Shown here: piece after piece, positions 21,775-31,561 of the stretch | Numbering within the stretch: the first letter of the stretch is position 1 | Layout: every line of letters starts with the position of its first letter | Assembly (NCBI GenBank): GCA_029247585.1 | Contig: JAQWKY010000005.1 | Span: forward strand, 1 to 50,384 | Direction: 5' to 3' | Source: Flavobacteriales bacterium | GTDB taxonomy: Bacteria; Bacteroidota; Bacteroidia; Flavobacteriales; UBA7430 | Length of the DNA: 50,384 bases | Made by a program: the position numbers and the translations under genes | The notes under the pieces: generated by a model | Databases searched by the model: none | Told to the model about the DNA's origin: nothing | What the model saw: the letters and a program-made list of their open reading frames with translations, nothing else

Positions 21775-22599
21775 TTAGTCATCAAAAGGACTTTTAATTT
21801 TCTCAAGAGCGCTCACAGCAATATGCGTATAAATTAATGTGGTTGACATATTAGAATGACCCAATAACTTTTGAATGTGCGCTATGCCTATACCGTCTTC
21901 CATAAGTTGTGTCGCAAAACTATGTCTTAGGGTATGTAGTGTTACTGACTTGGTGATTTTCGCTTTTTTAACAGCTCTTTTTAAAAATTGACCGGCACTC
22001 TCAGCAGAATACCGCCCCCCTTTTTGCCCCTCAAAGAGAAAATCTTTAGGTCTGTATTTCAGATAGTAAGTTCTTAATAAGCCCAATACCTTGTGGGATA
22101 AAATGGTATATCTGTCTTTCTTACCCTTCGCTTGTCGGACATGAATTAACATTCTACTTGAATCTATATCTTCTTTTTTAAGCGAAAGTAATTCACCTAT
22201 TCTTAGACCTGAACTGTAAATTAAGGCCAATATCGCTCTATGTTTGATATTGTTCGTGCAGCGCAATATATCTGCAATTTCAGACTTACTCAATACTAAA
22301 GGAAGTTTCCGCTCTCTTTGAGTGACTTTTAAATATTCAAATGGAATGACACGATTAAAGATTTCCTTGTAGAATAATTTTAAACCACCAACAATTTGCC
22401 TTTGGTAAGAAGCCGATATACCCTTCACCTTAACCAAGTAATAAATATACTCGAACAAGTCTTTATCAGAGATATTCTTTAAGGGGATATCTTTAAAGTG
22501 CCTCTGAACATGGATCAGGTGACTTTTGTAGCTAATTATCGTTTGCCGGCTGTAACGTTTTAACTCAAGTATTTTAACAAAATCTGTAACAACTTCCAT
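21775..22599 (-). CDS. Tyrosine site-specific recombinase, integron-integrase-like/Xer-like (274 aa)
   Basis: Catalytic residues are visible: GLRIGEL (Arg), HTLRHSFAT (His-x-x-Arg), LLGHS (His), LIYTHI (Tyr). The N-terminal SAM-like domain (RYSRQTIISYKSHL) and the C-terminal ...KSPFDD tail resemble the IntI family. It is transcribed divergently from the cassettes. Confidence 0.9.
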   Translation of the reverse strand: MEVVTDFVKILELKRYSRQTIISYKSHLIHVQRHFKDIPLKNISDKDLFEYIYYLVKVKGISASYQRQIVGGLKLFYKEIFNRVIPFEYLKVTQRERKLPLVLSKSEIADILRCTNNIKHRAILALIYSSGLRIGELLSLKKEDIDSSRMLIHVRQAKGKKDRYTILSHKVLGLLRTYYLKYRPKDFLFEGQKGGRYSAESAGQFLKRAVKKAKITKSVTLHTLRHSFATQLMEDGIGIAHIQKLLGHSNMSTTLIYTHIAVSALEKIKSPFDD

Positions 22600-22701
22600 A
22601 AAATAAAATTATATATTTATCATTAAAGTACATGGATTAACTAGTATAATTAAAGTTAAATATATAATTTTAATAATACTAGATTTAACAACAAGTTAGC
22701 A
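22600..22701 (+). other. attI-like region ending in the GTTAGCA junction heptamer (22695-22701)
   Basis: Very AT-rich 96-bp spacer between the recombinase start codon and GTTAGCA. GTTAGCA is the exact reverse complement of TGCTAAC, the left end of the first attC-like element (25872-25878). Confidence 0.65.
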
Positions 22702-22746
22702 CAAATACTAAAACAAAAACCGTTTTAAAAATAAAATAATAGCAAA

Positions 22747-23184
22747 ATGAAATCAATCTTAACATTACTATTCTTAATAGGGCAATTAACAATAGCCTAC
22801 TCACAAAATTGGGAGTTAGATTTTGACAACGCCTTAAAAACAACTCAAAATTCTAATAAAACTATTGTACTTGTGTTCTCAGGTTCAGACTGGTGTGCAC
22901 CGTGTATGAAATTAGAAAAAGAAATTTGGGAAACCGTTACGTTTCAAAAATACGCAAAAGACCATTTTGTAATGTTAAGAGCAGATTTTCCGAGAAAGAA
23001 AGCTAATAAATTATCAAAAGAACAAGCAATGAAAAATGCTGAACTTGCCGAAAATTATAATCCTAATGGTTATTTTCCAGCGGTTGTAATTATTGACAAT
23101 AATAAAAAAGTACTCGGAAATACAGGGTATAAAAAATTGACCCCAGAGGAGTATATTGAACATTTAAACAGTTTCATTAAATAG
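22747..23184 (+). CDS. Secreted thioredoxin-fold protein (CxxC)
   Basis: Signal peptide followed by the SGSDWCAPCMKLE active-site motif. 145 aa. Confidence 0.85.
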   Translation: MKSILTLLFLIGQLTIAYSQNWELDFDNALKTTQNSNKTIVLVFSGSDWCAPCMKLEKEIWETVTFQKYAKDHFVMLRADFPRKKANKLSKEQAMKNAELAENYNPNGYFPAVVIIDNNKKVLGNTGYKKLTPEEYIEHLNSFIK

Positions 23185-23185
23185 T

Positions 23186-24172
23186 ATGAAAAAGGTTCTT
23201 TTATTTCTTATTCTTCTTCAGTCTGTAAGCTCAAATGCACAAGATGTTTTTCATAAAACTACTAAACTAATGGGTAGCAGGTTTGACTTGACAGTAGTAG
23301 CCAAAGACTCAACGGAAGGAAAAAAATACATTGATACTGCCATTGCTGAAATAACAAGAATAGAAAAATTAATCTCATCTTGGGACGTTAATTCTCAAAC
23401 ATCAGATATTAATAGTAATGCAGGAGTTAAACCCGTTAAAGTTGACAAAGAATTGTTTGAGTTAATTGAAAGATCAATAGCCATTTCAAATTTAACTGAT
23501 GGCGCTTTTGACATTAGCTATGCTTCAATGGACAGAATTTGGAAGTTTGATGGTAGTATGGCCAAAATGCCGTCAAAAGACGAAATTACGGCATCAGTTG
23601 AAAAAGTGGGCTATAAAAATATACTTCTAGATAAAATAAATGGTACCATATTTCTTAAATTAAAAGGAATGAAGATTGGATTTGGAGCCATTGGAAAAGG
23701 TTATGCAGCAGATAAAACAAAAAAATTATTGATGGAAATGGGTGTTTCTGCTGGCATCATTAACGCATCTGGAGATATGAACACTTGGGGAAAACAACCC
23801 GATGGTAAAGAATGGACAATTGCCATTACCAACCCAATGAACAAAAATATAGCCTTTGCATTGTTGCCGCTTAAACAAGGAGCGGTTGTAACCAGTGGCG
23901 ATTATGAAAAATATGTAATGTTTAATGGTGTTCGCTATGCGCATATCATCAACCCAAAAACAGGCTATCCATCTCAAGGGATTATAAGCGTTACGGTTTT
24001 CGCCCCAAGTGCTGAACTTGCAGATGCTTTGGCTACCTCTATTTTTGTAATGGGGAAAGAAGTTGGTTTAGACCGCATCAATCAAATTCCTAATGTAGTA
24101 TGTATTGTTATTGATACAGAGGGACATATACACCAATCTGAAAATATAAAAATAAATGAAAAAACGAATTGA
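23186..24172 (+). CDS. apbE: FAD:protein FMN transferase (ApbE family)
   Basis: 328 aa with signal peptide. MGSRFDLTV, GAIGKGYAAD and ApbE-like C-terminal blocks (SGDYEKY, HIINPKTG). Confidence 0.88.
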   Translation: MKKVLLFLILLQSVSSNAQDVFHKTTKLMGSRFDLTVVAKDSTEGKKYIDTAIAEITRIEKLISSWDVNSQTSDINSNAGVKPVKVDKELFELIERSIAISNLTDGAFDISYASMDRIWKFDGSMAKMPSKDEITASVEKVGYKNILLDKINGTIFLKLKGMKIGFGAIGKGYAADKTKKLLMEMGVSAGIINASGDMNTWGKQPDGKEWTIAITNPMNKNIAFALLPLKQGAVVTSGDYEKYVMFNGVRYAHIINPKTGYPSQGIISVTVFAPSAELADALATSIFVMGKEVGLDRINQIPNVVCIVIDTEGHIHQSENIKINEKTN

Positions 24173-30096: not shown

Positions 30097-30101
30097 AATA
30101 A

Positions 30102-31133
30102 ATGACTGAATTTCAAATAAATGACCCAAGTTTGGAATCTCAATGGAGAGCATTAATTCTGTTTGGAAAAAATTCAGCTACCTATAAATTCGCATTTGCT
30201 AAAAGTCTTTTGGAGTTAATAGAAAATGAAACAACTTCTATCTCTATTGAAGAATTAGCAAAACCTTTTTCTCGCAACATAACAGAACATTTAAAAATAA
30301 GTGACAAACAGGGCAATTCAAGTTCCAGCAAATTTCTAAACTTTTGCAGAGATTATAACAAAGGCATTATTAATCAAAATCAACTATTAATTCAAACCGA
30401 AAAATTAGGCTTTGTTAATGTAGTTGATGCATTTCAAAATGTAAATGGCGGTCAAATTCCCAACCTTTTTTACGAAAAAGACTATTCAAACGGAAATAAA
30501 AGAATAGTGATTACAGACGACTTGCTTAAGCTTAAAGAAAGTTTCCACTTTCAAAACTTTGAAAATGAAACTGAAGCGAGATGGAAATTAGTTGAAACTG
30601 CTTGGAATCTTAAAATAAACCCAAATCTATTAGAAGTTAAATATGATGCAATCTCTTCATTATTCTTTCTTGAAAATGAATTTATGAAAAGAGTTGATAT
30701 AACTTCTGTTAGAGATTCTTTAAATGGTTACCAAAAAGGCAAATGCTTCTACAGCTTCTTAGATATTTCAATAATTCAAGGTAGTTCAGACATATGTCAT
30801 GTTGATCATTTCCTACCACACGTTAATAAACAAACTCATTATAAAAATGGCGCAAATATCAATGGTGTTTGGAATTTGGTATTAGCTCATTCATCAATGA
30901 ATAGCACTAAAGAAAAGGGAGCAAAAGTCCCACACAGAAAATATTTACAAAGATTATTTAATAGAAATGAATTTTATATAAGTAGTAAACACCCGTTGGC
31001 TGAGACTATTATTAATCAAACTGGAAAAACTAAAGAGATTAGAAGGGATTTTTTAGAAAAGCAGTATAACTTAGCACTTGAACAATCTATAATAACTTGG
31101 ACTCCAAGTGAAGAACGTAAAGGAACATTTTAA
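30102..31133 (+). CDS. HNH endonuclease-domain protein with ~230-aa N-terminal domain of unknown function
   Basis: C-terminal HNH motif: GKCFYS...CHVDHFLPH...NGVWNLVLAHSSMNSTK (His-Asn-His type). I could not assign the N-terminal part (WRALILFGKNSATYKFAFAKSLLEL). Confidence 0.75.
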   Translation: MTEFQINDPSLESQWRALILFGKNSATYKFAFAKSLLELIENETTSISIEELAKPFSRNITEHLKISDKQGNSSSSKFLNFCRDYNKGIINQNQLLIQTEKLGFVNVVDAFQNVNGGQIPNLFYEKDYSNGNKRIVITDDLLKLKESFHFQNFENETEARWKLVETAWNLKINPNLLEVKYDAISSLFFLENEFMKRVDITSVRDSLNGYQKGKCFYSFLDISIIQGSSDICHVDHFLPHVNKQTHYKNGANINGVWNLVLAHSSMNSTKEKGAKVPHRKYLQRLFNRNEFYISSKHPLAETIINQTGKTKEIRRDFLEKQYNLALEQSIITWTPSEERKGTF

Positions 31134-31498
31134 TGAGTATTTTTTCCGAAATATCTGAAGATAAAAAAATTCATAAAGGAGAATATTTCTTTATGGTTTA
31201 TGACGGTTTCCCCGTATCTCCAGGTCATATTTTAATTATTTCAAATGAAGAAAAGTTGGATTACTTTTCTCTAAGCAAGAAAGAAAAAGTTGAATTATCC
31301 AATCTTATTGAAATCGCAAAAAGAATTATTGAGAAAGAGAGAAACCCCGATGGTTATAATATTGGAATGAATTGTGGAGAAGCTGCTGGTCAAACAGTAA
31401 TGCACTTTCATTGTCATGTAATTCCAAGATATTTAGGAGACATGGAAAATCCTAGAGGAGGAATTAGACATTGTGTAAAAAATAAAGGTTACTATTAA
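31133..31498 (+). CDS. HIT (histidine triad) family nucleotide hydrolase/transferase
   Basis: Histidine triad HFHCHVIPR and PVSPGHILIIS motifs. 121 aa. The start codon overlaps the HNH stop (TAATG). Confidence 0.85.
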   Translation: MSIFSEISEDKKIHKGEYFFMVYDGFPVSPGHILIISNEEKLDYFSLSKKEKVELSNLIEIAKRIIEKERNPDGYNIGMNCGEAAGQTVMHFHCHVIPRYLGDMENPRGGIRHCVKNKGYY

Positions 31499-31509
31499 GA
31501 ACAAACGCA

Positions 31510-31561
31510 ATACAACAATGTGTAAATTGCATTAAAACGCATTTTACACGCACCGTTACAA
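31510..31561 (+). repeat. attC-like site D (52 bp), left end ATACAAC, right end GTTACAA
   Basis: ATACAACaatgtgtaaattgcattaaaacgcattttacacgcaccGTTACAA shares the core GCATTAAAACGC with site B. ATACAAC matches the reverse complement of GTTATAT (end of site C) at 6/7. It starts 11 nt after the HIT stop. Confidence 0.75.

Follow-up and report, generated by a model that had tools for sequence, protein, structure and literature searches.

Organization of the locus

We analyzed a stretch of 50,384 nt, contig JAQWKY010000005.1 of a Flavobacteriales bacterium (assembly GCA_029247585.1; GTDB lineage UBA7430), which is referred to here as the window. Between positions 21775 and 31561, the window carries a tyrosine recombinase gene and, on the opposite strand, an attI-like site followed by four gene cassettes, each closed by an attC-like site. 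The host is an uncultured Flavobacteriales bacterium: proteins of the flanks fall into clusters, at 90% identity or more, with proteins from metagenome-assembled genomes of this name. A preliminary description of this DNA had proposed an integron-type cassette array here, and its coordinates and junction heptamers all proved correct when the sequence was re-read (Table 1).

The recombinase gene is followed by nine plus-strand open reading frames (ORFs) in four blocks, each ended by an imperfect palindrome of the form NNNNAAC...GTTNNNN. The gaps between the last stop codon and the site measure 11, 4, 231 and 11 nt in blocks 1 to 4, in agreement with the 4-11 nt (231 nt in block 3) first given. 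The ORFs start 10-51 nt downstream of each junction (5-51 nt in the preliminary description). The AT-richness previously judged by eye is real, as the GC content is 0.29-0.38 at 22-32 kb and 0.42-0.47 in the flanks. The cassettes are large and partly multigenic, as had been noted: at 1.2-3.3 kb, with up to four genes, they exceed the usual size for integrons. The boundary between the array and the chromosome lies at G/TTACAA (31555-31561; the slash marks the crossover point).

The attI-like site has the junction heptamer GTTAGCA at 22695 and several TTAAC-type boxes (Table 1). It ends with GATTTAACAACAAG/TTAGCA, and the attI1 site of class 1 integrons ends with CCCTAAAACAAAG/TTAGCC, the two sequences resembling each other around the crossover. 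The attI-like region is 100% conserved up to the GTT in nine contigs, beyond which different cassettes follow. A scan for sigma-70-type promoters, aimed at the cassette promoter Pc, gave counts at the chance level with a tool that does not cover Bacteroidota promoters.

Complementarity across the cassette junctions

The preliminary description had claimed that the array obeys a composite-site rule, by which the left box of each attC-like site is complementary to the junction preceding its cassette rather than to its own right end. The AAC and GTT cores do not vary, which leaves four informative positions in each box. At these positions, the left boxes of sites A to D match the preceding junction at 4/4, 4/4, 4/4 and 3/4 (15/16 in all), and their own right ends at 3/4, 2/4, 0/4 and 1/4 (6/16), the latter corresponding to the 6/7, 5/7, 3/7 and 4/7 counted earlier over whole heptamers. 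By our own arithmetic, the probability of at least 15 matches in 16 is ~2e-7 at a per-position match chance of ~0.3. In three of the four window cassettes, the complementarity runs on to 11/12 or 11/13.

The rule also holds in independent genomes. A wider sample comprised 33 pairs of consecutive sites from 13 arrays, as detected by the covariance model R2 described below, and 96 of the 132 variable positions matched the preceding junction. The permuted mean was 50.9 (sd 5.8), and none of 100,000 permutations reached 96. Perfect pairs numbered 19/33 with the preceding junction, compared with 1/33 with the site's own right box (R'). In nine genomes that had not contributed to model building, 17/24 consecutive pairs were perfect (76/96 positions); all pairs were perfect in Gilvibacter (8/8) and in Flavobacteriaceae S0862 (5/5). 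At the sequence level, the cross-junction pattern is the footprint that would be expected from cutting and joining between the G and the TT of the GTT triplet.

Cassette replacement between related strains

Given that the preliminary description had called for a search for breakpoints in related strains, we compared metagenome contigs carrying the same or a closely related recombinase. Breaks exactly at GTT were found at the proximal junction, at the distal junction and around the repeated cassette copies of a related array, with a single exception, contig L095, which is considered below.

An identical recombinase protein is encoded on 16 metagenome contigs, and those reaching past the 3' end of its gene share the same flank with TatD, asparaginase and GT9 glycosyltransferase genes. 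Their DNA equals that of the window from within the recombinase gene to ...AACAACAAGTT, and then continues into at least four different first cassettes, all of these contigs diverging right after the GTT at 22695-22697. After AACAACAAGTT, the window and contig L096 read AGCACAAAT, six contigs read AGCAACAAT and carry a gene for a cyclic nucleotide (cNMP)-binding protein, L097 reads GTAGTGC, and L100 reads ATGCCCA. A sister clade, with a recombinase of 89% identity, is represented by ten contigs with eight different sequences straight after the conserved end ...AAAAAGTT (the shared stretch is also given as ...TTTAACAAAAAGTT).

At the distal junction, the last cassette of contig L093 differs from that of the window, and the sequence from GTTACAAAAACCC rightward into the GH16 gene is kept. 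Beyond the distal GTT, the two show one mismatch near the junction and 95-97% identity further on. Site C is 85% identical to the last attC-like site of L093, which follows a different gene. No further contigs spanning the distal junction were obtained: the exact GH16 protein is not on record, a DNA pattern search of metagenomes gave nothing new, and the contigs found via the asparaginase all stop short of the array.

A more distant array, L101 (GCA_030426955.1; recombinase 74% identical), lies on the reverse complement of positions 1-10000 of its locus and has at least nine sites of two subfamilies. It contains a 277-nt cassette without an ORF in three identical copies at different places. 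The identity extends from just after the G of one GTT to the G of the next, and the sequences outside differ; a truncated fourth copy stands at the end of the array. Cassettes are thus replaced between strains with breaks at G/TT, and one has been multiplied as a discrete unit bounded by G/TT, as expected of independently mobile units.

Structure and specificity of the attC-like sites

A first covariance model, R1, was built from trimmed 52-nt sites; its window is too small for the long sites, and it detected the short sites, B and D, alone. It was replaced by the full-length model R2, built from 14 sites. With filters off, R2 recovered no sites in the 50 kb window besides those of the array, four plus-strand matches with E-values from 1e-24 to 6e-8; the next plus-strand match had an E-value of 3.9. 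A simple palindrome scanner (AAC...GTT plus a 12-bp stem) gave 184 matches versus 105 in block-shuffled sequence, missed site D and was dropped as unspecific; an earlier, stricter version had recovered all four window sites.

Structural statistics were computed over 48 aligned sites. Compensatory changes occur in 12 of the 14 stem pairs, and 85% of the cells are paired, compared with 62% after shuffling and 23-35% when the partner is slid. This covariation indicates that selection maintains pairing within the strand and not a fixed sequence bound by protein. The substrate is presumably single-stranded. The AAC and GTT boxes are invariant, save one deviant cell at one pair. The 14-bp stem beside them is ungapped in ~47/48 sites, and therefore contains no bulged (extrahelical) bases. 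On the coding strand, an A·C mismatch occupies stem pair 12 in 47/48 sites and pair 7 in 37/48; on the opposite strand, these mismatches become G·T wobbles. The spacer between box and stem is asymmetric (3 nt versus 5-6 nt). The A·C mismatches and this asymmetry presumably give the site its polarity.

The sites fall into length classes of 52-66, 123-134 and 195-218 nt, with the box consensus [G/T][C/G][C/A][C/T]AAC and GTT[G/A]NNN; some sites read GCCTAAC...GTTAGGC. The long sites (A and C of the window, and those of L005, L012, L015 and L101) share a semi-conserved inner motif, (T/C)AAC(C/T)GAAA(A)G or GGCGGACAG, located ~40 nt before the right end, and their lengths cluster tightly at ~131 and ~200 nt, which suggests a conserved inner module. 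When R2 was run on the canonical attC sites of a class 1 integron, one site scored 10 bits (E 2.9), and two others were missed.

A recombinase without the IntI-specific domain

The recombinase has a single uninterrupted Pfam Phage_integrase match, with SAM_4 alongside. Its best curated family match is NCBIfam XerA_Arch (NF040815), at 204 bits against a cut-off of 220. The integron integrase model TIGR02249 scores 175 bits against a cut-off of 265 and is split in two pieces; PRK15417 also matches in two pieces, below its cut-off. Among solved structures, archaeal XerA scores 124 and 114 bits, Vibrio IntIA 113 bits and XerD 82 bits; the similarity to IntI1 and VchIntIA is about equal to that to archaeal XerA, with XerD lower. 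Among 72,556 plasmids, IntI1 ranks next for this recombinase, behind a few homologues of its own family. The catalytic residues R133, K158, H222, R225, H248 and Y257 are invariant across the recombinase family, and a C-terminal SP[LF]D motif is common to this family and IntI1.

Residues 176-249 of VchIntIA (2A3V) correspond to only 31 residues of the window recombinase. A block of ~44 residues of IntI1 has no counterpart in the window protein or in any of the ten array-associated homologues that were examined. It constitutes the additional domain specific to IntI (the region of the I2 helix, near patch III). The enzyme is therefore not a canonical integron integrase. An AlphaFold2 model of the recombinase, made from a 16-sequence alignment, had a mean pLDDT of 62 (40-60 in the catalytic domain); it was too poor for a fold search and was not used.

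Distribution and architecture in other genomes

For comparison, we took 80 loci from GTDB species genomes, chosen solely by homology of the recombinase (34-51% identity). R2 detected 38 sites in 15 of them, and 37 of the 38 lie on the expected side and strand relative to the recombinase. Gilvibacter has 11 sites and Flavobacteriaceae S0862 has 7; Polaribacter and a Bacteroidetes metagenome-assembled genome (MAG) have 4 each, and a Calditrichales MAG has 3. Jejudonia, Flavobacterium aciduliphilum, a Chitinophagales MAG and an uncultured bacterium (L014) have 2 each.

Two architectures were observed. In the window and its close relatives, as well as in the Calditrichales MAG (L005) and in L014, the recombinase gene and the array are divergently oriented, as in classical integrons. 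In Gilvibacter (L015), Flavobacteriaceae S0862 (L012), Polaribacter (L037), a Gemmatimonadaceae genome (L036) and others, the array lies downstream and is co-directional. In L015, which was read in detail, the attI-like junction is located ~35 nt past the recombinase stop codon. In L036, a recombinase without the IntI block is followed by seven AAC...GTT sites of ~158 nt, identified by a simple scan, and four of the six consecutive pairs obey the cross-junction rule.

The co-directional recombinases also lack the IntI domain. An N-terminal extension of ~70-150 residues precedes the SAM-like domain in L015 (9713-10885), L036 (9443-10705) and P0111-P0120. The 345-aa homologues P0111-P0120 were considered as carriers of an IntI-type internal insertion, and their extra length proved to be this extension. 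It had no Pfam match in the two proteins tested. A conserved W-x-P-D motif recurs within it, as WH(L/V)PDT in most Bacteroidota forms. PGAP names the homologues 'xerA: site-specific tyrosine recombinase/integron integrase'.

A short recombinase of 50% identity is encoded on a mobilizable 48 kb plasmid of Flagellimonas marinaquae (NZ_CP092416.1, 9901-12813; L106), beside erm(F) and a gene of the dihydrofolate reductase (DHFR) family, with a Tn3-family transposase adjoining. The DHFR-family gene has an attC-like site on either side (E 8e-17 and 5e-8), and this pair conforms to the cross-junction rule; erm(F) is in reverse orientation inside the apparent first cassette.

Interpretation

We interpret the locus as a sedentary chromosomal integron of an atypical kind, in which the adjacent recombinase serves as the catalyst, and assign this reading a probability of roughly 0.8. 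The breakpoints, the location of the sites, the complementarity across genomes and the stem covariation all support the integron-type reading of the preliminary description. The locus appears to work like an integron, and is not a standard member of the group, because two hallmarks of integrons, the IntI domain and the extrahelical bases, are missing. We infer that the recombinase would act on the attI-like site by its own start codon and on the hairpin attC-like sites at the 3' ends of the cassettes, cutting between the G and the TT of the GTT triplet. Recombination between two attC-like sites would excise a circular cassette, in which the first nucleotides of the cassette, TTNNNN, would complete its own right box. 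Such a completion of the right box by circularization would explain why the left box is complementary to the start of its own cassette. Integration of the cassette would then take place at the attI-like site.

Several observations weigh against this interpretation. The ~44-residue gap, seen in pairwise and multiple alignments with IntI1 and VchIntIA, means that a domain held essential for integron recombination is not present in the recombinase. This domain has been reported to be required for recombination in integrons (Messier & Roy 2001, cited in PMC9668308; PMC4792948), and to accommodate the extrahelical bases of attC (PMC9668308; PMC4792948). Moreover, 14 of the 33 consecutive pairs are imperfect; in L101 alone, the failures were traced to intervening sites of the other subfamily, which escape the model. 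The low-coverage contig L095 departs from L093 at a point 27 nt ahead of the first attC-like site, and not at G/TT. These two contigs, both of the window's species, share the attI-like site and the first two genes before diverging, and the divergence may reflect a rearrangement of some other type or a chimeric assembly.

The folding energies give a further point on this side. When both strands were folded as single strands, as the preliminary description had suggested, only site A was more stable than its shuffles (z -5 to -7). The proposed hairpin stem is thus borne out by covariation and not by thermodynamics, site A being the sole outlier in energy, and the extrahelical bases looked for in that description are absent. 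The energies do not identify the active strand. Finally, since loci and not whole genomes were compared, a canonical IntI elsewhere in these genomes could act in trans.

This last point leads to the strongest alternative, namely that the attC array, although genuine, is an orphan, like an attC-site cluster without an integron integrase (CALIN), made and rearranged in trans by a canonical IntI from another part of the genome or from mobile elements, with the short recombinase being a Xer-type enzyme that has another job. A recombinase that lacks the supposedly essential domain and whose best curated match, below the cut-off, is XerA-like would fit this view, and CALINs are common in genomes (PMC4889954). 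We nevertheless consider it improbable. Members of this recombinase family have an array directly beside them in more than 15 independent loci, which come from several orders and represent at least two phyla. A conserved attI-like site abuts the start of the recombinase gene or, where the two are co-directional, its stop. Extrahelical bases, which a canonical IntI uses, are missing from the sites. Furthermore, canonical complete integrons are almost unknown in Bacteroidetes: in a survey of more than 20,000 complete genomes, IntegronFinder 2.0 reported no more than In0 elements and a single complete integron, that of Salinibacter ruber (PMC9024848).

The AT-rich 10-kb block might instead be an ordinary genomic island, inserted at the tRNA-Ser gene via its own integrase, with the palindromes being incidental. 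The tRNA gene, 390 nt from the 3' end of the recombinase gene, and the GC content below that of the flanks agree with an island. However, no repeat of the tRNA 3' end was found at the far boundary; the recombinase gene and the flanks on either side do not vary among the related contigs, and the variation proceeds cassette by cassette with breaks at GTT, which makes this reading very unlikely. Least credible of all is that the palindromes, although imperfect and placed just past stop codons, belong to a generic family of repetitive extragenic palindromes (REPs), miniature inverted-repeat transposable elements (MITEs) or terminators with a coincidental heptamer pattern, as the window contains no further copies, no site is terminator-like, the terminator-scan counts are at the chance level, an Rfam search of the window matched two tRNAs alone and none of the sites, and in independent genomes the cross-junction rule holds and the sites cluster beside recombinase homologues. 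The scattered REP or terminator family that the preliminary description had set against its own proposal is therefore not what the 50 kb contain.

Relationship to known systems

The locus shares with classical integrons, both the mobile class 1 type and the chromosomal type of Vibrio cholerae, a divergent recombinase, an adjacent attI and co-oriented, mostly promoterless-looking cassettes. It also shares the AAC...GTT palindromes at the cassette ends, the G/TT crossover and a left box (R'') complementary to the cassette's own start, and its box consensus is close to the canonical RYYYAAC / GTTRRRY. As in classical integrons, the cassette content varies by strain, with a candidate defence gene in the window and a restriction-modification set in a related array. 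On the other hand, the ~44-residue IntI domain is missing, the sites have conserved A·C mismatches and no extrahelical bases, the cassettes reach 1.2-3.3 kb, the sites have discrete lengths (~52-66, 131 and 200 nt), and R2 barely scores canonical attC sites.

In having the array downstream, the co-directional subclade (L015, L012, L037 and L036) is similar to the reverse-orientation integrons with the 'typical' Spirochaetota IntIs (PMC9668308), but its recombinases are without the IntI domain and have the N-terminal extension wherever the full ORF was read. The window recombinase resembles XerA of the Xer/dif systems in its size and uninterrupted catalytic domain; it differs in falling below the XerA cut-off, and in being accompanied by arrays of 52-200-nt hairpin sites and a variable cassette region instead of a single 28-bp dif. 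If its attC model detects the sites, IntegronFinder would probably call the locus a CALIN, because the recombinase would fail the intI_Cterm profile (criteria in PMC4889954). Unlike in a CALIN, the array is always accompanied by a neighboring recombinase that is conserved, intact and related to IntI and has an attI-like site of its own, and therefore it is not an orphan.

Reviews list Bacteroidota among the integron-bearing phyla (PMC8618304). IntegronFinder requires intI_Cterm as a second profile, and Cury et al. set aside the few non-IntI recombinases that lay close to attC sites (PMC4889954). For their integron-like subgroup, Smyshlyaev et al. described the insertion as one that 'is not fully conserved', and made no link to arrays (PMC8138268). 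The IntI domain has been reported as the innovation that enabled recombination of folded, single-stranded attC sites (PMC4792948, PMC7790495). In the full-text searchable literature, with paywalled work outside the scope of the search, we found no description of integrons with a domain-less integrase.

The IntI-specific domain serves as the operational definition of an integron integrase, and here a domain-less recombinase is tied to arrays with all the sequence footprints of attC x attI recombination at G/TT. If it is the catalyst, integrons are more abundant and taxonomically wider in range than has been estimated, some arrays classed as orphans (CALINs) may have a cognate enzyme, and the choice of strand and polarity becomes open to study in a natural system that uses mismatches, not bulges. 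If the lineage branches outside the canonical IntIs, the I2 helix was not needed for folded-attC recombination to arise, at odds with the current account of integron integrase evolution. The plasmid-borne homologue of Flagellimonas, with erm(F) and a DHFR-family cassette, indicates that this form may matter for resistance tracking in marine Bacteroidota.

We see about even chances that these loci represent a second, widespread form of integron, in which the integrase is without the I2 domain, either from the start or through loss, and the attC hairpins carry conserved mismatches in place of extrahelical bases. Such a form would be frequent among Bacteroidota and extend to Calditrichota and probably to Gemmatimonadota; current integron finders would miss it or file it as orphan, and it could sit on plasmids by resistance genes.

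Cassette content and neighboring features

The genes of the four cassettes are listed in Table 1. The protein of cassette 2 matches the PADLOC candidate defence family PDC-S11 over its full length (E 2e-158), and two window proteins have type IX secretion system (T9SS) sorting domains. In the related arrays, many small genes of no known function are found. One cassette of L101 comprises three genes, encoding a BanI-type restriction enzyme, a DNA methylase and a helix-turn-helix (HTH) protein, and a two-gene pair in a related array looks like a toxin-antitoxin module. Within the DUF3570 gene of cassette 1, a (GAT)n/(GAC) run at 24709-24774 (family D1) encodes ~20 consecutive aspartates; this trinucleotide run is possibly slippage-prone.

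Table 1. Coordinates of the features of the array and its surroundings in the window.
Feature	Position	Strand	Remarks
tRNA-Ser(GGA)	21297-21382		390 nt from the 3' end of the recombinase gene
Tyrosine recombinase, 274 aa	21775-22599	-	IntI-related and XerA-like; without the IntI-specific additional domain
attI-like site	22600-22697	+	Crossover triplet GTT 22695-22697
attI-like box GATTAAC	22635-22641		TTAAC-type
attI-like box GTTAAA	22655-22660		TTAAC-type
attI-like box GATTTAAC	22682-22689		TTAAC-type
Cassette 1, four genes	22696-25996	+	Pfam matches; identical cassette in contig L096
Thioredoxin-like	22747-23184	+	Cassette 1; Pfam
ApbE flavin transferase	23186-24172	+	Cassette 1; Pfam
DUF4266	24156-24377	+	Cassette 1; Pfam
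DUF3570	24334-25860	+	Cassette 1; Pfam
attC-like site A, 131 nt	25872-26002	+	TGCTAAC (25872) ... GTTACCA (25996); R2 114 bits, E 4e-24
Cassette 2, one gene	25997-27195	+	
NucS-like (or PD-(D/E)XK-like) nuclease N-terminus, DUF4268 C-terminus	26024-27145	+	Cassette 2; Pfam, NCBIfam
attC-like site B, 52 nt	27150-27201	+	TGGTAAC (27150) ... GTTGGCA (27195); R1 56.7 bits, R2 44 bits
Cassette 3, one gene	27196-30090	+	
Secreted polysaccharide lyase; Ig-like, CBM96 and cadherin-like domains, T9SS tail	27206 or 27243 to 29734	+	Cassette 3; Pfam
attC-like site C, 131 nt	29966-30096	+	TGCCAAC (29966) ... GTTATAT (30090); R2 117 bits, E 1e-24
Cassette 4, two genes	30091-31555	+	
343-aa protein, HNH-like motif	30102-31133	+	Cassette 4; weak PADLOC PtuB and ThsC matches to cassette 4
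HIT-family protein	31133-31498	+	Cassette 4; Pfam HIT
attC-like site D, 52 nt, last site	31510-31561	+	ATACAAC (31510) ... GTTACAA (31555); R1 56.4 bits

Three direct copies of a ~104-nt element lie at 21447-21753, between the tRNA-Ser gene and the 3' end of the recombinase gene. Each copy ends with a small hairpin, GGGATCATCCGCGAAGCGGATAAT (families D2 and D3). The elements resemble a REP- or MITE-type repeat, and metagenome contigs often break nearby.

A second low-GC block (GC 0.29-0.35) spans ~44000-46650, directly after a tRNA-Met gene (43921-43995). It was considered as a second array and rejected, because this block of ~44.0-46.6 kb contains no attC-like sites; there is no recombinase there either. 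It encodes a 445-aa protein without a family match and a 234-aa ion-channel protein (Ion_trans), and is ended by a long GC-rich palindrome at ~46470-46550.

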